A DNA stretch of 64,000 nt. Source: an uncultured Candidatus Saccharibacteria bacterium (GTDB taxonomy: Bacteria > Patescibacteriota > Minisyncoccia > Phycocordibacterales > Zambryskibacteraceae). The position numbers and the translations under genes were made by a program. Location of the stretch: contig CAYHDI010000001.1 in assembly GCA_964355645.1 (NCBI GenBank), positions 28,778 to 92,777 of the forward strand. Reading direction: 5' to 3'. Shown here piece by piece: positions 6,255 to 53,143 of this stretch. The notes under the pieces are model-generated. The model had not been told where the DNA came from. It saw only the letters and a program-made list of their open reading frames with translations, and did not search any database. Position 1 is the first letter of the stretch; every line of letters begins with the position of its first letter.

Positions 6255-7706
6255 TTATAGTGAGCTTGTCGAACTATCTTTTCTTAAAAATAATGGTTCG
6301 CTTGGTTTCTTGTTTTCTTTTATTAGTTTCTGTATTTTTAATGCTGTATCAGGCATAAATGGGGCGAGCGCGTCTGCTACTCCACGAAGACCCGTGACTA
6401 ATTCGGAAATAATTTCTTTCGCTTTTTCTGGATCAGTTTTAACTAATTTAAATGGTTCTGTTTCTTGAATTTTTTTATCTAATTCTGCAATTTTTTCCCA
6501 AACTAAATTCATCGCCTTGGCTATTTCAAATTTTTCTAATTCACTTCCAATGGCCAACACTCGGTGTTGGCCAATTGGAACATCCGAATATTTTTCGGCC
6601 ATAGTCATAATTCTTGAGGTCAAATTCCCTATCCCATTCGCTAATCCTGAATTATAAGCTTCATTAAATCTCTCCCAGGTGAAATCGGAGTCTTCAAAAG
6701 TTGAGAGTTCCCTGCACACAAAGTATCTAAGAGCTTCAGCACCGTATTTCTCAACCACTTCTACGGGGTTTATCACGTTGCCTAGGGACTTGGACATTTT
6801 TTGACCATTTGCGCCCTGTATAAAGCCATTTATGACTATTTGATAAGAGGTTGGAAGACCGGCAGACATAAGCATGGCTTGCCACATAGCTGATTGTTGT
6901 CTAAGATTGTCCTTGCCCGCGTATTGAGTTGGATTGCCGTTGGCCCAATACTTTTCAAAATTTTCTTTGTTTTCGGGCCAACCGAGAGTGGAAACATAAT
7001 TAACCAAAGCATCAAACCAAACGTACATCACGTGGTCTTCATCTCCGGGAACAGGAATCCCCCAACTCATTTTTGACTTTAAGCGCGAGATAGAGAAATC
7101 TTCCAGTCCCCTTTCTACGAATGCTTTAATCTCATTAAACCGAAAATCCGGCACTACAAAATTTGGATTATTCTTGTACAAATCCAAAAGAGGTTTTTGA
7201 TATTTAGAGAACCTAAAGAAATAATTTTCTTCTTCTCTTTCTTCTAATTCAAGATTTGTATGAATACTACATCTTCCATTTTCAAGTTCTGAATCCGTTT
7301 TCTCCAATTCACAACCAATACAATATTTAATCTTGTAATTCTTTTTATATATATCTCCATTTGCCTCACATCTCTTCCAAAATTCTTGAGCCGATTTTAT
7401 ATGATGTTCATCTGTGGTGCGAATAAAATGTATTTCTGGGTCAATATGTAAATCAATAAGTATTTGTTTAAAATATTGGACGTATTCATCAACATAGCTT
7501 TGGGGGTCTTTGTTCTCTTCTACAGAACGTTGGTATATTTTTATTCCGTGTTCATCTGTGCCTGTATTAAAAAATACTTCAAAACCAATCAATTTTTTAT
7601 AACGATTTACAACATCGGCTCGTATAAATTCCATAGCGTGTCCTATGTGAGGTTGTCCGTTTACATACGGCAGGGTCGTGGTGATATAAAAACTTTTTCG
7701 GCTCAT
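6255..7706 (-). CDS. metG: methionyl-tRNA synthetase (core only, no C-terminal tRNA-binding domain); contains in-frame palindrome at 6552-6572
   Basis: P-x-x-NG-x-PHIGH, zinc knuckle CxxC, KMSKS. Confidence 0.92.
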   Translation of the reverse strand: MSRKSFYITTTLPYVNGQPHIGHAMEFIRADVVNRYKKLIGFEVFFNTGTDEHGIKIYQRSVEENKDPQSYVDEYVQYFKQILIDLHIDPEIHFIRTTDEHHIKSAQEFWKRCEANGDIYKKNYKIKYCIGCELEKTDSELENGRCSIHTNLELEEREEENYFFRFSKYQKPLLDLYKNNPNFVVPDFRFNEIKAFVERGLEDFSISRLKSKMSWGIPVPGDEDHVMYVWFDALVNYVSTLGWPENKENFEKYWANGNPTQYAGKDNLRQQSAMWQAMLMSAGLPTSYQIVINGFIQGANGQKMSKSLGNVINPVEVVEKYGAEALRYFVCRELSTFEDSDFTWERFNEAYNSGLANGIGNLTSRIMTMAEKYSDVPIGQHRVLAIGSELEKFEIAKAMNLVWEKIAELDKKIQETEPFKLVKTDPEKAKEIISELVTGLRGVADALAPFMPDTALKIQKLIKENKKPSEPLFLRKDSSTSSL

Positions 7707-13516: not shown

Positions 13517-14026
13517 CTAATCCGCTAGATGACTGGCCTCCAAACCTTTATTAATAGCCTTAATTAGGTCCTTTTTAGGAAGTTTTAAATCAACTTCTTT
13601 TAAATACCCAAGATGGAAAAGAATTTGTGAGACAAAATGAATTTCAAACATTTCATCTCGACTAGCAAGAACGGTTCTTGCTAGAATTTCGCGTGTCGCT
13701 TCAAAAAGTTCTGGATTCGGGGCTTCGCCTTGAACTAATTTCTCAAGAAGTATGAGGGGTTTCAAAATTTCAGGTGTTGAAAGAATAGTCTTTATAAATT
13801 CTGCAGAAGTGATTCTCCAATATTCTTTGCCCCGTACAAGAGAAACCGAAACAAAGGAAATCGGCTCGAGTAATCCTCGAAGCTTGGAATGCCCCTTCCT
13901 CACCCCCGTCGCTGTGGCTCTTATTAGCCCCAAATCCTTTGTGAGTATTGAATAAACCCTATCCGCTTCGCGTAGAGGCCTGTATGAGAGCACCAAACCT
14001 TCTGTGGTGTGTATTGTGTAAGACAC
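13517..14026 (-). CDS. recO: DNA repair protein RecO (short form)
   Basis: N-terminal OB-fold pattern EGLVLSYRPLREADRVYSILTKDLGLIRATATG. Confidence 0.65.
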   Translation of the reverse strand: MSYTIHTTEGLVLSYRPLREADRVYSILTKDLGLIRATATGVRKGHSKLRGLLEPISFVSVSLVRGKEYWRITSAEFIKTILSTPEILKPLILLEKLVQGEAPNPELFEATREILARTVLASRDEMFEIHFVSQILFHLGYLKEVDLKLPKKDLIKAINKGLEASHLAD

Positions 14027-14045: not shown

Positions 14046-17000
14046 TTAAGAATTACGAATTGTGATATTCGTAGCCCTTTTAATCTCTTCATTATATTTC
14101 TTAAATATTTCTCTTTCTTCATCTGGCACAACATAAGACATCACATCTTTTGGTTTTAGATTCTTTTCTTTTCTCATTTCTTGAATCGAACGAATAATGT
14201 CTCGAACTTTGCCTTCCTCGGCAAGTTCTGGAGTGATATTTGAATCCACTAATACATCTTCAGAAACTACATATTTAATTTCTTTTACATTCACTTCATC
14301 TTTTATAAGTTCTTCATAAACATCTAATCGTTGCATTGATAAAGATTGAAGCGGTTGTCTTATTTTGATTCCGGCTTTTGCTCTTGCTTCTAAACCTCGA
14401 GAAACAATCTCTCTCGTTTTATTCATTCTTGAGATAATATCTCCATTTACATTTTTATCTTCTAAAGGCCACACATCCAAATGCACACTTTCCAAATCCT
14501 CTTCTGTTCGAAGTTTCTGATACAGTTCTTCTGCATAGAATGGAGTGAATGGTGCGAGGAGCTTAGAAATTGTTTTCAAGACAAAATACAAAGTCTGCTT
14601 CGCATCTTCGTCTCCTTCTTTGATTCGCTCGCGGGAACGACGAAGATACCAAGTCGAAAGGTCATCGACGAAATCTCGAATGGCACGGGTAGGTTCGAGA
14701 AGTTTGTAGTTATCAAGATTCTCTGTAGTTAACTTAATTAACTCATTCAATCTTATGAGAATCCATTGGTCGAGAATATTTCCACTCCCCGACACCCCAC
14801 CCTTGCCCTCCCCTTGATAAGGGGAGGGTTGGGAGGGGTCAGCATAAAGTTCATAGAAAGAATAAATGTTGTCGAGCATATTGAATACTCGTTTATTAAC
14901 TTCATCCACCGTCTTGTCATCAAAGTTTTTTGAATCCCCTGGTTGATTGATTGAGTACATCCAGAAACGCACCGCATCTGCGCCGTGTTTCTCCATAGAT
15001 TCAAACGGGTCTACCACATTACCCACTGACTTGCTCATTTTTTTGCCTTCCTTGTCCAAGAGTAAACCGAGGCAAATCACATTTTTGTAGGCTGCACCTC
15101 GATTCATGAGCACTCCTATCGCGTGCATGGTATAGAACCATCCACGAGTTTGATCAAGTCCTTCAGAGATAAAATCAGCTGGATAAAGAATTTTTGAGAA
15201 ATCCCCCGCTTTTTCTCGATTGTCAGAATCTTGAGAGAAAGGCATTGAACCGGAATCAAACCAAACATCCATCACTTCCTTCACTCGTTTGTATTCCTTC
15301 CCATTTTTCTCTAGGACAACTTCATCAATAAATGGTTTATGCAGATCAAGTTCAAAATTCGCGTTGTGCGGAAAAGGAACAAAATCTATTTCTTTTATTT
15401 CTGCATTCTTAGGATAATTTTCTGCTTCTATGTCATCCCCTATTTGTTCAGCAGTCAAACCTTTTGAACCAAGAATCATGTTCATGATTGGGGCACCATG
15501 ACTTATAAACAAAATATTTTTACCTGAATATTTGTTTTCATATTCTTCTAAGACTGTCATCACCCGAAACTTTGTATCGGTATAATTTTCCCCATCAGGG
15601 TTATTTTGTTTGTATCTATCTGAATAATGTTCATATCTAACCAAAAAATCATCCATTTTTTGGTTTTGATATTTATGGCCCGGATCAAATTCAATCAAAC
15701 GGTTATCTACGATGATTTCATTTTCGAAACCAATGGTTTCTTTAATAAGTTCTGAAGTTTCTTGTGCTCGCAGAATTGGAGAACGAATAATAATATCAAT
15801 TTTCTTATTCTTCAAACTTTCGGCCATTTTTTTCACTTGTTCTATACCCAACTCCGTCAAATGATTATTTGGATCTCCTTCTGAATCCCAAACCTTATTC
15901 ACATTATTCATGGCTTGACCATGTCGAACAGCGAAATATTTGTTGCCGGATTTTTTGGAATATTTCTTCAGGGTTTCAACCGAATCAACGACGATTCTAT
16001 CCTTCCCATCTATTGATGATTCTGCAAGCCAGATTGGAAGAGGTGTGCCCCAATATCTTTCTCGACTAATGGCCCAATCTTTCGCTTCTCGGAGCCATTC
16101 ACCAAAACGACCTTCCTTAATGTGAGAAGGTTCCCAATTTATCTTTTCATTTTCTTTGACCAATTTGTCTCGGAGCTCTGACATCCTGATGTACCAAGAA
16201 TCACGGGCATAATAAATCAATCGAGTCTTGCATCTCCAACAAAACGGATATGAGTGAGTATAATTTTCTTTCTCAAAAAGCAAGCTCCGATTTTGTAAAT
16301 CTTTCAAAATATCTACTGCCAGAGTTTCGTCCACCACCGAACGACCTTCGAGCCAATCCGTGCCTTTCATAAATGTTCCTTCCGGAGTGACTAGGTGAAC
16401 CTTTGGTAAGCCGACTTTCGTCCCAAGTTCGAAGTCATCTTGTCCATACATCACAGCTGTATGTACAATGCCCGTCCCATCTTCGGTGTTCACAAAATCC
16501 GCAGGGTAAACCCTGAAAGCCTTATCATCTTTTTTAATAAATGGATAAAGCGGTTCATATTCAAGGCCGACCAAATCCTGACCTTTAATTTTCTCAATAA
16601 TCTCGTATTCTCCTTCAACCACTTTCAATCTTGATTCAGCCAAAATTAAAATTTCATTTTCTTTTTTTATTTTTACATAATCAATTTTCTCCCCCACAGC
16701 AAGCCCGACGTTCCCCGGGAGAGTCCACGGTGTAGTGGTCCAAGCAAGCAAATATGTTCCCGGCTCATCGACTAGTTCAAACTTCGCTGTAATGGTTAAA
16801 TCCTTTACATCTTTGTACCCTTGAGCAAGTTCGTGGGTTGAGAGAGTGGTGCCACAACGCGGACACCAAGGTACAACTTTGTAATCTTTATAGAGTAAAT
16901 TCTGCTTTTCAACTTCGGAGAGAATCGACCAGATAGATTCCATAAACGGATTATGATAAGTCACATACGCGTTGTCATAATCCGCCCAATATCCCATACG

Positions 17001-17426
17001 GTCGCTTAATCTTCTCCATTCATCCACATAAGTCCAAACGGATTTTTTGCACTCATCATTAAATTTCTCTACGCCGTATTCTTCAATTTCTTTTTTGCTT
17101 TTTAGTCCAAGCTTTTTCTCCACTTCGAGTTCTACAGGTAAACCATGAGTATCCCAACCAGCTTTTCTGCGGACATGAAATCCGCGCATGGTTTTGTAAC
17201 GCGGAATAGCGTCCTTAAACGCGCGAGCTTCGACGTGATGAATACCCGGCTTGCCGTTCGCAGTCGGGGGTCCTTCATAAAACACAAATTCACCCTTGTC
17301 AGCGGGCTTCTTTAGAGTCTTTTCAAATATTTTATTGTCTTTCCAGAACTGGAGAATTCTTTCTTCTCTCTCTGATCTGGTAAGCCTTTTATCTTCAGGT
17401 TTACCCTGAGTCTCATCGAAGGGCAT
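14046..17426 (-). CDS. ileS: isoleucyl-tRNA synthetase with inserted histidine-phosphatase domain and in-frame palindromic element
   Basis: class I motifs (P-x-x-NG-x-xHHV, W-ISRERYWG, KMSKS); 190-aa RHG...SHG insert at 15372-15938; palindrome at 14796-14839. Confidence 0.9.
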   Translation of the reverse strand: MPFDETQGKPEDKRLTRSEREERILQFWKDNKIFEKTLKKPADKGEFVFYEGPPTANGKPGIHHVEARAFKDAIPRYKTMRGFHVRRKAGWDTHGLPVELEVEKKLGLKSKKEIEEYGVEKFNDECKKSVWTYVDEWRRLSDRMGYWADYDNAYVTYHNPFMESIWSILSEVEKQNLLYKDYKVVPWCPRCGTTLSTHELAQGYKDVKDLTITAKFELVDEPGTYLLAWTTTPWTLPGNVGLAVGEKIDYVKIKKENEILILAESRLKVVEGEYEIIEKIKGQDLVGLEYEPLYPFIKKDDKAFRVYPADFVNTEDGTGIVHTAVMYGQDDFELGTKVGLPKVHLVTPEGTFMKGTDWLEGRSVVDETLAVDILKDLQNRSLLFEKENYTHSYPFCWRCKTRLIYYARDSWYIRMSELRDKLVKENEKINWEPSHIKEGRFGEWLREAKDWAISRERYWGTPLPIWLAESSIDGKDRIVVDSVETLKKYSKKSGNKYFAVRHGQAMNNVNKVWDSEGDPNNHLTELGIEQVKKMAESLKNKKIDIIIRSPILRAQETSELIKETIGFENEIIVDNRLIEFDPGHKYQNQKMDDFLVRYEHYSDRYKQNNPDGENYTDTKFRVMTVLEEYENKYSGKNILFISHGAPIMNMILGSKGLTAEQIGDDIEAENYPKNAEIKEIDFVPFPHNANFELDLHKPFIDEVVLEKNGKEYKRVKEVMDVWFDSGSMPFSQDSDNREKAGDFSKILYPADFISEGLDQTRGWFYTMHAIGVLMNRGAAYKNVICLGLLLDKEGKKMSKSVGNVVDPFESMEKHGADAVRFWMYSINQPGDSKNFDDKTVDEVNKRVFNMLDNIYSFYELYADPSQPSPYQGEGKGGVSGSGNILDQWILIRLNELIKLTTENLDNYKLLEPTRAIRDFVDDLSTWYLRRSRERIKEGDEDAKQTLYFVLKTISKLLAPFTPFYAEELYQKLRTEEDLESVHLDVWPLEDKNVNGDIISRMNKTREIVSRGLEARAKAGIKIRQPLQSLSMQRLDVYEELIKDEVNVKEIKYVVSEDVLVDSNITPELAEEGKVRDIIRSIQEMRKEKNLKPKDVMSYVVPDEEREIFKKYNEEIKRATNITIRNS

Positions 17427-17441
17427 TGTGGGCTTATCTTA

Positions 17442-19046
17442 TCACATCCTTTCTGGAGCGGGAATACCGAGGATAGTTAAGCCGTTTTTCATGACTGTAT
17501 TGAAAGCGCGAGTGAGAGCGATGAGGTATGAAGATTCTGGTTTGTCAGAAATGATTTGTTCGTTCGCATAAAGATTGTTGAAACTACCTGCAATTTCGGT
17601 TAAATATGTAGTAAGAAGATTTGGAGAATATTCTACACACGCTCGTTCAACAATTTCTGGGAATCTATAAAGAAGTTTTTCAACTACACGCACCTCACCT
17701 ACCGCAAGCGGTCCCCCCTCCCCTTGCCAAGGGGAGGGCTGGGAGAGGTGTACCTTAGCTTTCTCTAAAATTGAACATGTTCGCGCATAAGCATATTGAA
17801 GATAAACACCAGAATCACCTTCGATTGAAACCGATTTTTCTATATCAAAAATAATATCGTTGCCGACTGATTGACGAAGAATCATATATTTTATTGCTCC
17901 TATGGCTACTTGTTCATCGCCTTTTGTTTTTTCCTTCACACTCTCGATTAAAGTTTCTGCCTCTAATGCACCACCAGATCTAGAACTCATTTTGCCCGTA
18001 GGTAAGCGGAGCATACCGTGCCCAATATGTTTGGTAATCTCTGCGAGTTTGGGAGAAATAAGTTTAAGTGCTTGAAGCAACACTTTAAAATAAGCATTGA
18101 CCTCATTGCCCGTCACCACGATTGATTTGGTGTATGGATATTTCTCAAACTTTATTGGGGCTAAGCCAAGTTCTTTGGCTTCATAGGTTGGGATACCTTC
18201 TGAATTTATAAAGACACGAGTATGAAGCGCTTTATCATAATTTTCTGCATGAAAGACAACGGCTCCATTCTCCCCTGCTTCGAAAACTTTTCCCATATTT
18301 TCCTCTACGATTTTCTTGCCTCTTGGAGCTGATTCCGATTCAAAGAAAAAATAGTCAAAATGACTGCCTAATTTTTTATAAATAGAATCAAAATATTCTA
18401 AACTAGCTTTTCTACCTTCATCATAAAGTTTGTTTATAGATTCATCCGAACGATTATATATCTTTTTATTTATTTCTTGGATTTCTTTTCTGATATTCTC
18501 ATCTTCTTCAAATTTCTTATTCCCAAAAACATACGGCTCATTTGAGCCTTGCATTGTTCCCCAGACAGCTTTGGCTACATGAATTCCCACATCACCTTGG
18601 TAGCAAGCTTGTTTCACTTCGGCGCCGTTCCATTCAAAAATATTCGCGAGTGTTGAACCAACTACATTGGGCATAAGGTGACCAATATGGAATGACTTGA
18701 AAGGATTTGGGTCGGTGTGCTCCACCATCACCTTCTCTCCTTTTAAACTTTCATTCTTTCCAAATTCACTACCCTTCTCTACAATCTCTCCAATACTTCT
18801 CTTGAAAAATTCCTTGGATAAATAAAAATTTATGAAGCCGGACTTCAATTCTACTTTTTCAATCTCACTTGGGTGTCGGACAGCCAAGTAATCAACAATC
18901 TCCTGGGCCTTCTTGGAAACAATTCCAGCGTTGGTTGTATAGTCCCCGAAAGCAAGGTTCGTTGGGTGTTCTACTATGAATTTGGCGTTTTTAGTGCCAA
19001 CACTTTCTAAGGCCTTTTTGACTAGATTTTCTATAACTTTTTTCAT
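17442..19046 (-). CDS. argS: arginyl-tRNA synthetase with in-frame palindromic element (17714-17750)
   Basis: FHIGHL HIGH-motif, catalytic core and DALR anticodon-binding C-terminus. Confidence 0.9.
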   Translation of the reverse strand: MKKVIENLVKKALESVGTKNAKFIVEHPTNLAFGDYTTNAGIVSKKAQEIVDYLAVRHPSEIEKVELKSGFINFYLSKEFFKRSIGEIVEKGSEFGKNESLKGEKVMVEHTDPNPFKSFHIGHLMPNVVGSTLANIFEWNGAEVKQACYQGDVGIHVAKAVWGTMQGSNEPYVFGNKKFEEDENIRKEIQEINKKIYNRSDESINKLYDEGRKASLEYFDSIYKKLGSHFDYFFFESESAPRGKKIVEENMGKVFEAGENGAVVFHAENYDKALHTRVFINSEGIPTYEAKELGLAPIKFEKYPYTKSIVVTGNEVNAYFKVLLQALKLISPKLAEITKHIGHGMLRLPTGKMSSRSGGALEAETLIESVKEKTKGDEQVAIGAIKYMILRQSVGNDIIFDIEKSVSIEGDSGVYLQYAYARTCSILEKAKVHLSQPSPWQGEGGPLAVGEVRVVEKLLYRFPEIVERACVEYSPNLLTTYLTEIAGSFNNLYANEQIISDKPESSYLIALTRAFNTVMKNGLTILGIPAPERM

Positions 19047-20982: not shown

Positions 20983-21034
20983 GGTGTTTGGTATTAAAAA
21001 ACGCCCCGTGGCGTCAATATATAGTACTACGCTA

Positions 21035-21083
21035 TTAAAAAAATTGCAAACAAATAGGCCGGTCGCAGAGTCTGCGACCGGCC
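21035..21083 (-). terminator. intrinsic terminator (minus): 12-bp stem GGCCGGTCGCAG-AGTC-CTGCGACCGGCC plus T-run; second small hairpin+T-run at 20995-21015
   Basis: seen directly downstream of GC-rich ORF 21134-21670. Confidence 0.7.
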
Positions 21084-21133
21084 ACCTAATATCTAGGATT
21101 TTGTGCAAACTACTTGCCTGTCTATGCGCAGGT

Positions 21134-21670
21134 TTACCTGCCCGCGATTTTTCTCGCCAACGTAAACGTGCGGGAAGAGACACCGCACTCTAGCGCTTCC
21201 TCTACCTCGAACAACTCCCTGATCGCCTGAACGTGCGTCACTTTTCGGCCATCGATCATGGTGACCGTGGTGCCCGCTAAACCAAATCGATCTGGATATG
21301 GTTGCACACGCACGAGCACCTCCATCGCTGCACCGATGGAACCATGCTCCCCGAAATCCACGACCGATGTCTCAATGATGTGACTTCCCCGGCGCCACCT
21401 CGCTTCCACGATCCTCTCTGATGTAGCTGTGGTTACCGTCGCCATGAGACCCCAGGCATCGAATTGGTAATTCCTCCTCGACGCCGTGCCTGTGGAATCT
21501 GCCCAGGTGTCAATAGCATTGGGCACCCACCACACATCAAGCGGTGGAACACTAGCGAATACTCGCGCCACGATTTCATAAAAACTTCGCGCAGCGTTTG
21601 GATCGGTCGCACATGACAAACATTCGATTCTCTTTACTCTCACTGTATTATCCTCACGACTTGTGCCCAC
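21134..21670 (-). CDS. GC-rich hypothetical protein (178 aa), compositionally foreign
   Basis: long ORF with strong terminator; no recognisable motifs. Confidence 0.5.
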   Translation of the reverse strand: MGTSREDNTVRVKRIECLSCATDPNAARSFYEIVARVFASVPPLDVWWVPNAIDTWADSTGTASRRNYQFDAWGLMATVTTATSERIVEARWRRGSHIIETSVVDFGEHGSIGAAMEVLVRVQPYPDRFGLAGTTVTMIDGRKVTHVQAIRELFEVEEALECGVSSRTFTLARKIAGR

Positions 21671-21900
21671 TTGGCAGTGAGCGTTTCTCGCTACGAGGAT
21701 AGACTAGAATAGTCTTCGCCATAGCTTCAAATTTACGAGTGTGCAACATCGAATGTTGCACAATTCATACACTCAAAGCTGTGGCGAATTGTGTTTGCAA
21801 GTAGTTAAAGAACTTAACCACATTTAGTATACACCTTTTATGTGTTTTGTCAAGGACTTTCTTGAGTACCAAAAAGAGCCTTGTTTATAGGCTCATTTTA

Positions 21901-21978
21901 CGCCCCCTCTTAATGTAAGAGGGGGTTGGGGGTGTTATAACCCCTCCCTTACCCTCCCCTTATATTAAGTGGAGGGAA
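21901..21978. repeat. two tandem GC-rich palindromic elements (CCCCCTCTTAATGTAAGAGGGGG-TTGGGGGTGT and CCCTCCCC-TTATATTAA-GTGGAGGG) of same family as in-frame inserts in ileS/argS
   Basis: seen directly; shared CCCTCCCC...GGGGAGGG TTGGGRG core. Confidence 0.8.
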
Positions 21979-21998
21979 ATAAATTCGTCAGGACGATT

Positions 21999-22799
21999 CT
22001 AGCGAATCTCGTAGGTCACAGTCACACTTGCAGTCACTTTGTTCTCCCCTGCTGGAATAGTTGGGGTTGAATCTACAGATTTCATCATCGGGCTTGCACC
22101 ATACCCCATGCCATAAATCGGAGTAGGGTTGTTGAAATTATCTGTGTACCCAACAACACGTACAATCCTGACACCGAGATTCTTGGCCAAATCATCTGCC
22201 TTAGCCTTCGCATCAAGAATGGCTTTCGCTCTCGCTTCATTTTGATTTTTGTTTGGATCATCCGTGGTGAAGTTTAAACCAGAAATATTTGTGGCTCCCT
22301 TGTCTCCCACGAGAGCAAGGGCCTTGCCCGCATCAGATGTCTTGCGAATTTTCACTGAGACGCCTTGATTCACTGTATATCCGTCGAGCACTTGTTTGGA
22401 TGGAGGACAATATCCGTTTGAGCAGAGAGACGAAACGTTGGTGTAGGAATATTTCGGATAAACAGAATAATCAACCGTCTTGATATCCTTCTCATCAACT
22501 CCTAAATCTTTCAATCCGGCGAAGATTACGTTTGTATCTTTCGTCACTTTGGCTTGTGCTTCAGAAACAATTTTCGCATCGGCGGAAACACTGAAGGTAA
22601 AGGTGGCAATGTCCGGCACAGAAACCGATTCGCCTTGTCCGGTCACCGAGATAGAATTATAAACAGCATTAACATTCTGCCAATCTTTGAAAGCATTGAG
22701 AGTCGCCACAATCAGAAATATCCCGAGAATCAGAAGGGCGAAAGAACCTCGTTTGAAAAATTTGTTCGCGTCTTCACTTTTCATGTTTTCTCTGTCCAT
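21999..22799 (-). CDS. SIMPL/DUF541 domain protein (YggE-like), membrane-anchored
   Basis: N-terminal TM plus SIMPL pattern. Confidence 0.7.
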   Translation of the reverse strand: MDRENMKSEDANKFFKRGSFALLILGIFLIVATLNAFKDWQNVNAVYNSISVTGQGESVSVPDIATFTFSVSADAKIVSEAQAKVTKDTNVIFAGLKDLGVDEKDIKTVDYSVYPKYSYTNVSSLCSNGYCPPSKQVLDGYTVNQGVSVKIRKTSDAGKALALVGDKGATNISGLNFTTDDPNKNQNEARAKAILDAKAKADDLAKNLGVRIVRVVGYTDNFNNPTPIYGMGYGASPMMKSVDSTPTIPAGENKVTASVTVTYEIR

Positions 22800-47063: not shown

Positions 47064-47136
47064 GCCCCCATAGCTCAATGGTAGAGCATTCGCCTTTTAA
47101 GCGATCGATCATGGTCCGATTCCATGTGGGGGCACA
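47064..47136 (+). tRNA. tRNA-Lys (anticodon TTT), atypical T-loop
   Basis: acceptor GCCCCCA/TGGGGGC; anticodon loop CTTTTAA; D-arm GCTCAATGGTAGAGC. Confidence 0.7.
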
Positions 47137-47966
47137 TGAATATTTTCGGTCAAAAATGTTTGGCTTTAAGGAGGTTGGGACACACATTGACTGAAATCTC
47201 TAAAATCACTGGTAGACCAAAGTCTTCGGTCTATGGATATATACAAAATATACCGTTAGATACAAAAAAACTAAAGTCTATAAAACAGGCCTCTGGTATT
47301 AGAGCCCGGAAACTTGCTCAAGATAGAAAAGGCAAAAGTAACAGAATTTTCAAAAAGTTTAACGCTTGGAATAAAGATACGATAAACATAGTTTCTCATT
47401 TTTTATTTGATGGAGAGATTAAAAAAGAAGGATGTATTTATAATAACCGTAACACTTCTTTGGTTCATGGGGTAGAAAAATCCATGAAAAAAATCTATGA
47501 CTTTAAGCCTAAATATTATTTTAACAGCAAGACCGGGGTAAGCAGAGTATCTTATTTTAATGTTGTTCTTGGTGCATATATGAAAAATAAATCAGAAGAA
47601 TTATTGAGGGAAATTTTAAATTTACCAGTGAACCTAAAACGAATATTTTTGCGTGCTTTTTTTGATGATGAGGGGTGTATGGATTATAGACCAAAACGTA
47701 ATCTCAGAAGAATACGGGGCTATCAAAAGAACAATAAAATTCTTCATCTAATCCAAAAATTGCTCAAAAGCTTTGATATCGAATCTTCTATAATTCCACC
47801 TAATGAAGTGGTTGTTTCCGGTAAAAAAAATCTGCAAAAATTTCAAGAAAAAATTAATTTCTCGTCCGGTGTAAAAATCAACGGGAAACGACCAAACAGT
47901 ATCTGGAAAAAATCTCTAGAGAAACGAGGTTTGCTTGACCAAGCCATTCGTTCTTTTAAAACTTGA
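47124..47966 (+). CDS. LAGLIDADG-type homing-endonuclease-like protein with N-terminal HTH, abutting tRNA-Lys 3' end
   Basis: two LAGLIDADG-like motifs (SHFLFDGEI, LRAFFDDEGCMD) plus HTH. Confidence 0.6.
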   Translation: MWGHMNIFGQKCLALRRLGHTLTEISKITGRPKSSVYGYIQNIPLDTKKLKSIKQASGIRARKLAQDRKGKSNRIFKKFNAWNKDTINIVSHFLFDGEIKKEGCIYNNRNTSLVHGVEKSMKKIYDFKPKYYFNSKTGVSRVSYFNVVLGAYMKNKSEELLREILNLPVNLKRIFLRAFFDDEGCMDYRPKRNLRRIRGYQKNNKILHLIQKLLKSFDIESSIIPPNEVVVSGKKNLQKFQEKINFSSGVKINGKRPNSIWKKSLEKRGLLDQAIRSFKT

Positions 47967-52483: not shown

Positions 52484-53143
52484 TCAGTTGCGGAAAAGTA
52501 CCACGCCCCCGGCACGCCAACGATTCGAGAACTCGAGCCTGAGGACGAACACGCGCCAGCCAAGCGAGCGCAGGTACACGTCGAGAAAGAACACCGACGC
52601 TCCATCGAAGATGGGAACCAAGTTCGCCCAACCGTCCGTGCGGAGGTGGAAGGGGTTCTCACCCCGGTCACAAGCAACGAGCATGTCGTCGACCTGCTTG
52701 GGAGAGAAACACTTGCCACACTCGACGAGCGTCCCCGCGACAAGATCGAGATTCTTCTCGATGCCGAGGTGCTCGACGGACATCTCAATGAAGTTCATCT
52801 CTGCACCGAGCTGGTAACTCGACGCACGACCTTCGATCATCGCCGGCACGGACTTCCGAAGCCAGTTGTCTAGATCTCCATCACGGTAAACGATGTGCTT
52901 ACCGCGGAAGAGATCCTTGGTCTTGCACTCGCCGACTGCTTGTACGGTGATGTTCGTGGCGAGAGCGATGAGGCTGGCAACGACTGCCTTGAAGCGGTTC
53001 TTGATCGCCTCACCCCAAAGTCTGATGGCTTCGACGGTATTCTGAATCGCCCACTGTGCATCCTCATTCGAGAACTCACGGATGGACGACTGGTGTTCGA
53101 CCACGAGGCCAGCGAGCTTGTACTGCTGTTGTTCGGTTGCCAT
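52484..53143 (-). CDS. DGR2 target protein; VR 52491-52600 at C-terminus (...NRWRAGGVVLFRN)
   Basis: VR/TR pairing; GC-rich. Confidence 0.8.
   Translation of the reverse strand: MATEQQQYKLAGLVVEHQSSIREFSNEDAQWAIQNTVEAIRLWGEAIKNRFKAVVASLIALATNITVQAVGECKTKDLFRGKHIVYRDGDLDNWLRKSVPAMIEGRASSYQLGAEMNFIEMSVEHLGIEKNLDLVAGTLVECGKCFSPKQVDDMLVACDRGENPFHLRTDGWANLVPIFDGASVFFLDVYLRSLGWRVFVLRLEFSNRWRAGGVVLFRN

Follow-up and report, generated by a model that had tools for sequence, protein, structure and literature searches.

The DNA analysed here is a 64-kb stretch (hereafter the window) of an uncultured groundwater Patescibacterium (Minisyncoccia) and lies on a 189-kb contig of a Hainich groundwater metagenome (ERZ1292618). 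The window carries four units of a short, G+C-rich palindromic repeat at three sites, namely inside ileS, inside argS and in an intergenic spacer, and the two genic copies are translated in frame as parts of essential tRNA synthetases. The layout of their arms suggests that the units belong to the known BoxC/PIT/TMECO class, i.e. class II purine-motif intrastrand triplex motifs, and that they are passenger copies acting at the DNA level and tolerated in protein loops; we put the probability of this reading at about 0.7. The kind of repeat is itself known. What is new is its Patescibacterial host and its in-frame location in protein-coding genes.

Four units at three sites

Both host genes are long open reading frames (ORFs) on the minus strand with Pfam and PDB matches: ileS encodes IleRS (1126 aa; positions 14046-17426) and argS encodes ArgRS (534 aa; 17442-19046). 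They lie in a minus-strand housekeeping block between 6 and 27 kb that includes SIMPL, secE, nusG, rplK, tmk, argS, ileS and recO. The nearest matches of the window ArgRS were proteins labelled Minisyncoccia, Parcubacteria or Zambryskibacteria. Identical ArgRS products were present in three independent assemblies. Therefore, the element is not an assembly artefact.

The ileS copy (14794-14839) is a symmetric, double element with the layout ACCCCACCC-TTG-CCCTCCCCTT-GAT-AAGGGGAGGG-TTG-GGAGGGGT, forming a two-tier palindrome in which either strand reads as C-arm, G-arm and mirror G-arm. It is translated from the minus strand in phase 0 as PSQPSPYQGEGKGG (IleRS residues ~864-877), and its predicted folds reach -35 / -36.3 kcal/mol (z -4.4 / -4.6). 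A covariance model of the element (R1), built on a seed of 49 metagenome copies and the two genic copies, matched it on the minus strand with 50.9 bits and on the plus strand, the copy used in the seed alignment, with 48.2 bits.

The argS copy (17691-17750, plus strand) consists of an outer arm CACCTCACC (17691-17699), a mini-hairpin TACCGCAAGCGGT (17700-17712), a C-arm CCCTCCCCTT (17716-17725), a GCC loop, a G-arm AAGGGGAGGG (17729-17738), a CT loop and a third arm GGGAGAGG (17741-17748). It is translated from the minus strand in phase 0 as HLSQPSPWQGEGGPLAVGEV (ArgRS residues ~433-452) and scored 45.6 bits with R1, whose seed alignment included it. The nested 13-nucleotide (nt) mini-hairpin encodes the peptide GPLAV and is missing from the homologous element of the Parcubacterial locus L088; it is a palindrome set within another palindrome.

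The third site lies 22 nt downstream of the SIMPL stop codon (21999-22001). Unit A (21903-21934, plus strand) is a diverged variant, CCCCCTCTTA-ATG-TAAGAGGGGG-TT-GGGGGTG, whose third arm co-varies with its altered G-arm and which R1 matched with just 13.4 bits (E 0.044). Unit B (21940-21976, minus strand) reads CCCTCCACTTA-ATA-TAAGGGGAGGG-TAA-GGGAGGGGT on the minus strand with one stem mismatch, was not in the seed alignment and scored 42.9 bits (E 1e-10). The two units form a tail-to-tail inverted dimer of ~74 nt.

An R1 scan of the window found no copy beyond these four units. No Rfam family covered the element, either in the window at the gathering threshold or in 23 element-bearing loci at the gathering threshold or E<=1. 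The core CCCTCCCC-N7-GGGGAGGG occurred exactly twice in the window (14806-14828 and 17716-17738) and not once in 100 dinucleotide shuffles. The predicted folds range from about -35 to -42 kcal/mol, with z between -3.1 and -4.6 in five of six cases; the sense strand of the argS element folds more weakly (z -1.8), and 12 of 200 shuffles fold as well.

An earlier note on this DNA, made from the sequence alone, had described a dispersed, hairpin-forming, G+C-rich DNA repeat, a description that is supported. The sequences that it quoted, including the two intergenic units, were found where it had placed them, and its peptides, PSQPSPYQGEGKGG in ileS and SQPSPWQGEGG in argS, are correct, both lying in intact minus-strand ORFs. 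Both genic elements are longer than it had given, and the intergenic copies that it took to be in tandem are inverted, not direct repeats. The common orientation that it had seen in the two genes says little, since R1 matches both strands of the symmetric ileS copy. The elements are G+C-rich as claimed (63-70%), but against the ~38% G+C given for the genome, the window measured 41.5%.

Arm architecture and triplex code

In each unit, the pyrimidine arm CCCTCCCC is separated by 3-7 nt from its complement, the purine arm GGGGAGGG, and after a second loop of about 3 nt another purine arm mirrors the first. In ileS and argS the pairing arms are CCCTCCCC(TT)-N3-(AA)GGGGAGGG, and the variant arms of the intergenic units pair too. 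The mirror arm follows as GGGGAGGG-TTG-GGAGGGG on the plus strand of the ileS copy and GGGGAGGG-CAA-GGGTGGGG on its minus strand, as GAGGGGG-TT-GGGGGTG in unit A and as GGGGAGGG-TAA-GGGAGGGG in unit B, while in argS the mirror arm GGGAGAGG has one mismatch.

The same layout was found far beyond the window. A core scan of public metagenomes returned at least 120 stretches, with 112 unique copies among the matches listed, on contigs of 30-70% G+C; in nearly all of these copies, one side is extended by a G-rich tail that is conserved and unpaired. Among the matches listed, an arm GGGNGGGG stands 1-6 nt 3' of the G-arm in 97 of the 112 unique copies, compared with 0.13% of random positions, and a loop of 3 nt precedes this third arm in 79 of 101 tails. 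The variable position of GGGNGGGG in these tails is T in 72, A in 28, C in one and G in none, i.e. T or A in 100 of 101. The third arm mirrors the G-arm GGGGAGGG with T or A facing the A·T pair, which is the code of a purine-motif (reverse-Hoogsteen) triplex. A single DNA strand can form a hairpin, and under this code (G*G·C, A*A·T, T*A·T) it could also turn back once more to make a triplex. Two units in inverted order give the long palindromes of ileS and the spacer.

Variant copies change all three arms together. The arm GGGGAGGG goes with GGGWGGGG, GAGGGGG with GGGGGTG (window unit A), GGAGAGGG with GGGTGAGG (L088 and L075), GGAGGGGG with GGGGGAGG (L066 and L053) and AGGGAGGA with AGGAGGGA (L019). 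That the three arms vary in step in the Parcubacterial variants supports a constraint on the three-stranded fold. A G-quadruplex in the G-rich half is possible from the sequence; the mirror rule with T or A fits a triplex better. A role as terminator was also considered and rejected: no T-run follows the hairpins, other loci show no shortage of copies where genes diverge, and published work found no terminator activity.

Relation to BoxC/PIT/TMECO elements

The three-arm layout is that of the TMECO of Escherichia coli, earlier called BoxC or PIT elements, for which Holder et al. (2015; PMC4666352) give the consensus CCCTCNCCC-N3-6-GGGNGAGGG-N3-GGGNGAGGG with TTA and CCG as types of the second loop; the earlier Hoyne/Maher and BoxC work is cited in that paper. 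Enterobacteria contain the elements in abundance, as cyanobacteria do related G/C-rich motifs. As isolated strands they form triplexes in vitro, which were not demonstrably seen in vivo, and they showed neither promoter or terminator activity nor a link to transposons (PMC4666352). In E. coli they are described as "always located intergenically", at times as inverted pairs; they are also linked to local variability of the sequence. RNA cannot form purine-motif triplexes (PMC4666352). Therefore, any effect at the RNA level would come from the hairpin alone.

The window element shares with TMECO the order of C-arm, loop of 3-7 nt, G-arm, loop of ~3 nt and mirror G-arm, the second-loop types (TTA/TTG, CCG), the T or A facing the A·T pair, and apparently dispersed copies that include inverted ("palindromic") pairs, have no linked transposase among the genes scanned and differ in presence between close relatives. 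In the window, dispersal amounts to four units at three sites in 64 kb, with one inverted dimer and one symmetric double unit. R1 matched copies 1 and 2 of the E. coli MG1655 TMECO in the hrpB-mrcB spacer (27.3 and 20.2 bits) and a copy on a Rahnella megaplasmid (46.2 bits). With the ileS element as query, BLAST matched nothing in E. coli genomes, the element being too short and too diverged for such a search, so that a covariance model is needed.

The differences from TMECO lie in the arms, which are CCCTCCCC and GGGGAGGG instead of the consensus CCCTCNCCC and GGGNGAGGG (L088 and L075 being nearer to TMECO), in the host, a Patescibacterium (Minisyncoccia), and in location, since two window copies are in frame inside essential genes whereas the E. 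coli copies were reported as always intergenic. Moreover, triplex formation was shown with oligonucleotides of E. coli TMECO, whereas the window variant is assigned by its layout. The literature searched contained no description of such repeats in Patescibacteria, nor of triplex motifs inside genes, and a search for the element sequence and for palindromes of the Candidate Phyla Radiation (CPR) returned nothing relevant.

Other short G+C-rich palindromes are known. The G+C clusters and double-hairpin elements of fungal mitochondria lie in AT-richer genomes and can be in frame; they are organellar and unrelated in sequence to the window element, and we know of no triplex-type third arm in them.

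Gain of the element in the window lineage

The closest relatives of the window lineage are L084/L085, L086 and L004, whose ArgRS is 78-85% identical and whose gene order is the same. The element is absent at both gene sites in L084, L085, L086 and L004. At the ileS site, L084, L086 and L004 have RDKSLENKNLNPKGT-type loops compared with ADPSQPSPYQGEGKGGVSGSG in the window; at the argS site, the nearest relatives have NSKGDASAERENIHE compared with KVHLSQPSPWQGEGGPLAVGEVRV, and the element is also absent in P0002-P0005. R1 found no copy over the syntenic loci of ~21 kb of L084, L085, L086 and L004. The intergenic dimer has an empty site in L211, compared with which ~80 nt were inserted between ACGAATTTA and TAAAA(A/T)GAGCC without duplication. 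Thus all three sites are filled in the window lineage and empty in the relatives compared, the gene sites with respect to the closest relatives and the intergenic site with respect to L211.

The earlier note had presented the genic copies as in-frame insertions. The frame is indeed kept, with a net gain of 6 residues in IleRS and 9 in ArgRS, but the insertions are not clean: the native loop was largely replaced, and filled and empty genic and intergenic sites revealed neither a target-site duplication nor a shared target sequence. The definition of a miniature inverted-repeat transposable element, terminal inverted repeats together with a target-site duplication, thus does not describe these sites, at which no duplication was seen. 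In ileS as in argS, both arms of the element are unlike the relatives' native loop. Therefore, the whole segment is foreign.

Alignments to orthologues and PDB structures, together with the relatives without the element, support the proposal that it is lineage-specific and lies in frame in variable surface loops of two essential synthetases. In IleRS, the loop is where the catalytic core meets the anticodon-binding domain (Anticodon_1 begins at residue 886), and in ArgRS it follows the first helix of the DALR anticodon-binding domain (416-534). The AlphaFold model of the ArgRS has a mean pLDDT of 87.5, and its sole segment below 50 is residues 435-448, the element-encoded peptide between the predicted helices 415-433 and 451-459.

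The dimer borders an insertion of 985 nt (~21015-22000) between SIMPL and secE, which is absent in L084 and L086. This insertion has its own promoter-like site (TTGACA-17-TATACT), a leader whose long-range stem (TTCGCCAnAGCT / AGCTATGGCGAA) bears an apical hairpin (21740-21762) that is entirely different in L211, a G+C-rich ORF of 169 aa (21134-21643, minus strand) for which 5.8 billion proteins yielded a single homologue, and a terminator-like hairpin at its end (21057-21083). No Pfam, NCBIfam or PHROG match was found for the ORF. The insertion was considered as an autonomous partner of the dimer and rejected: L211 carries the insertion but not the dimer. Therefore, the two are independent.

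A DNA element read in three codon phases

R1 located about eight sites in 86 Parcubacterial loci (1.38 Mb), three of them in the same ArgRS loop as in the window (L088, L075 and L019). The four bearers of this loop element are not one another's nearest relatives. Therefore, either several gains occurred at one loop, or an old gain was followed by many losses. Between the window and L088 the stem differs by a compensated C>T / G>A pair.

The copies in proteins are read in all three phases: in phase 0 as PSPxQGEG (IleRS and ArgRS), in phase 1 as LPLVRGG (DnaG primase, in the linker between zinc ribbon and core, and the NAD-ligase LigA), and in phase 2 as PPLxKGR (Dus and QueA). Therefore, the repeat is a DNA element and not a protein motif. 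The peptide that the earlier note had found to be the same in both synthetases is as quoted, but the identity reflects just a common codon phase.

Elsewhere the element lies mostly between genes, and divergent spacers are not avoided. BLAST against plasmids found the unit in Nostoc, Pseudanabaena, Dolichospermum, Rahnella, Moraxella, Photobacterium and Aeromonas, and one Photobacterium replicon holds it at 40 or more places. Viral carriers were considered and rejected: among 2.9 million viral contigs, just 14 hold the core.

Some triplex units are embedded in longer conserved composite repeats on contigs of ~40-46% G+C (L090, L099, L104, L153, L155, L162, L169 and others; L095, L132, L137, L140, L186 and L193), and BLAST found similar units in cyanobacterial plasmids. 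One composite repeat is ~110 nt long with a second hairpin CCCCCCTT-N3-AAGGGGGG, and another starts with atcctaaatcatttgtgaatttcttact. A neighbour scan of other copies showed DUF559 endonuclease-like genes flanking three of them, and L136 contains a spacer-less 34-nt tandem array of the core.

Origin and spread

The element is most likely selfish or neutral passenger DNA. Its copying may depend on a folded single strand, which would explain the joint change of all three arms. The in-frame copies would be survivors, kept only where the frame stayed intact and the protein tolerates extra residues; such a filter would account for their position in variable surface loops and for the Pro/Ser/Gly-rich, probably disordered peptide.

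Several observations weigh against assigning the units to the TMECO class as passenger copies. The triplex of the window units is predicted, and for E. coli TMECO it was seen only in isolated single strands, with in-vivo footprinting unsupportive (PMC4666352). The window arms CCCTCCCCT and AGGGGAGGG fail the strict consensus CCCTCNCCC...GGGNGAGGG, though they fit the general class. There are just three sites in 64 kb, all within 7.2 kb, and the two genic sites are loop replacements lacking target-site duplications. Gene lists with Pfam revealed neither a transposase nor any other mobilising gene in the window, and Pfam showed no transposase among the 97 ORFs containing or flanking other copies; a tblastn search of 2.4 Mb of loci with an IS200 TnpA sequence gave no match, which is a weak test. 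Finally, the occupation of one ArgRS loop by the element family in four separated lineages (window, L088, L075 and L019) is not obviously explained by pure chance and tolerance, so that a preference for the site, or a function, is conceivable.

A known kind of repeat with in-frame members is that of the repetitive extragenic palindromic (REP) sequences and the Rickettsia palindromic elements (RPEs). The window element could be a miniature mobile element of this type, a palindrome moved in trans by an HUH/Y1 transposase like the REP-associated tyrosine transposases (RAYTs), which would recognise the hairpin, and in frame by chance. It resembles them in being dispersed, hairpin-forming and lineage-specific; REPs, likewise short and palindromic (20-40 nt), are found singly, as dimers and in clusters, and the singletons and inverted dimers of the window recall REPs and bacterial interspersed mosaic elements (BIMEs). 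According to Di Nocera et al. (2013; PMC3733652), some REPs occur in frame in genes whose enzymes serve replication, repair or RNA handling, tRNA synthetases among them, and presumably fall in linkers or loops that tolerate them. RPEs are likewise, as summarised in that paper, palindromic repeats in frame in genes that still encode functional proteins (PMC3733652).

The window copies have no terminal GTAG or CGTC tag; a minority of the metagenome copies listed end in ...GGGGTAG, with the tetranucleotide 3' of the palindrome and not before it. The conserved unpaired third purine arm under a mirror code is not a REP feature, and a Y1 transposase or RAYT was found neither in the window nor, with the weak query already mentioned, in the 2.4 Mb of loci. 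RPE-1-type elements are ~100-150 bp long and, to our knowledge, restricted to Rickettsia; the window element, with copies of 46, 60 and ~74 nt (the dimer) and 35-60 nt overall, is far shorter, occurs across phyla and is set apart from RPEs by this description. E. coli BoxC/TMECO, moreover, was reported without a transposon link (PMC4666352). The comparison with RPEs made in the earlier note therefore holds for the behaviour, which resembles in-frame insertions of RPEs and REPs, but not for identity, and we regard a REP/RPE-type mobile element as quite improbable.

Perfect hairpins in Paceibacterial genes

The window contains three further in-frame perfect hairpins of other sequences, each in a region variable among orthologues: TGGCCAACAC-tcg-GTGTTGGCCA (6551-6573) in a class I tRNA-synthetase gene (6255-7706), CTAGCAAGAA-cgg-TTCTTGCTAG (13662-13684) in recO and AACCAAAAAAT-catcc-ATTTTTTGGTT (15639-15665) in ileS. 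Such hairpins are in excess in related genomes. Within genes, perfect hairpins with stems of >=10 bp and loops of 3-7 nt exceed expectation ~7-fold in the long ORFs of L004-L088 and the window (887 kb): 55 were observed, compared with 8 expected from codon shuffles. In argS of 80 Parcubacteria (L004-L083), perfect hairpins with a stem of >=8 bp are ~3-fold over-represented (77 compared with 25 from codon shuffles) and accumulate at two hotspots, relative positions 0.10-0.12 (18 hairpins) and 0.82-0.85 (17 of 77). The hotspot hairpins belong to many unrelated sequence families with stems of up to 20 bp. In the CCACTTGG...CCAAGTGG family of the N-terminal hotspot there is no length change, and stem differences between species are fully compensated. 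The same palindrome was also seen twice in one locus (L007 4989/11291, L014 3622/11415 and L010 10155/11299), and the ileS loop of other Paceibacteria has palindrome-like peptides, e.g. in P0126, P0141, P0169 and P0171.

This excess bears on the possibility that template switching at replication (quasi-palindrome correction) produced the window palindromes where they now stand, similar sites being convergent or copied locally. Template switching is known to create and maintain perfect stems with compensatory changes in one step (PMC8794818), as would suit the genic enrichment, the compensated N-terminal ArgRS hairpins without length change and the clustering of the three window sites within 7.2 kb. 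It yields, however, inverted repeats, whereas the third arm is a mirror repeat. Neither would it account for the whole ileS and argS segment being foreign with arms unlike the native loops, nor for near-identical 40-nt units in cyanobacteria, enterobacteria and contigs of 30-70% G+C. We consider an origin in place very unlikely.

The segment might instead be kept for a function, as a regulatory mRNA hairpin (pausing or processing) or as a useful Pro/Gly-rich surface loop. Perfect stems, compensated between the window and L088, would fit this, and so would the ArgRS loop, which is occupied by the element family in four lineages apart from one another and, in many further ones, by perfect hairpins of other kinds. 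However, hairpins at the same site have unrelated sequences and peptides, the loop is predicted to be disordered, the same DNA is mostly intergenic elsewhere, and PIT/TMECO showed no promoter or terminator activity in E. coli (PMC4666352). Because the nearest relatives do without the segment and the DNA is read in any phase in unrelated proteins, a functional role is highly improbable, and it is the ArgRS hotspot that leaves it a small probability.

A broader idea is that Patescibacteria (Paceibacteria/Minisyncoccia) possess an active process, directed by structure, by which perfect hairpins and triplex palindromes are written repeatedly at the same codon positions of essential genes, with their stems then kept perfect; the two argS hotspots shared by many unrelated hairpin families suggest it. 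We regard this as unlikely. If it were true, the triplex motif of ileS and argS would be one client of the process, and the hairpins could act in the replication, transcription or translation of essential genes and would not merely be tolerated.

Other features of the window

Residues 499-662 of the IleRS form a histidine-phosphatase domain (PF00300, E 3e-29, RHG motif) inserted within the class I catalytic core, and the same architecture is found in L084, L086, L088 and many database fragments. The window also contains a bAvd-type gene (PF22296; 51690-52076), an accessory protein of diversity-generating retroelements, with no recognised reverse transcriptase adjoining and with a neighbouring ORF (52484-53143, 219 aa) without family. 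A LAGLIDADG_3 ORF with a weak match (47124-47966) directly follows a tRNA-Lys gene.

Implications

The four units of the window extend the BoxC/intrastrand-triplex repeat class to the CPR, and they indicate that triplex-type units can persist, translated, in essential genes, although the class was described as strictly intergenic in E. coli. For the annotation of metagenome proteins, stretches of PSPxQGEG, LPLVRGG and PPLxKGR are signs of this repeat in the DNA, not of a protein motif. Across very different hosts, the T/A rule and the covariation of the three arms provide comparative evidence of a constraint on a triplex-compatible fold, a point that the in-vivo experiments in E. coli had left open.

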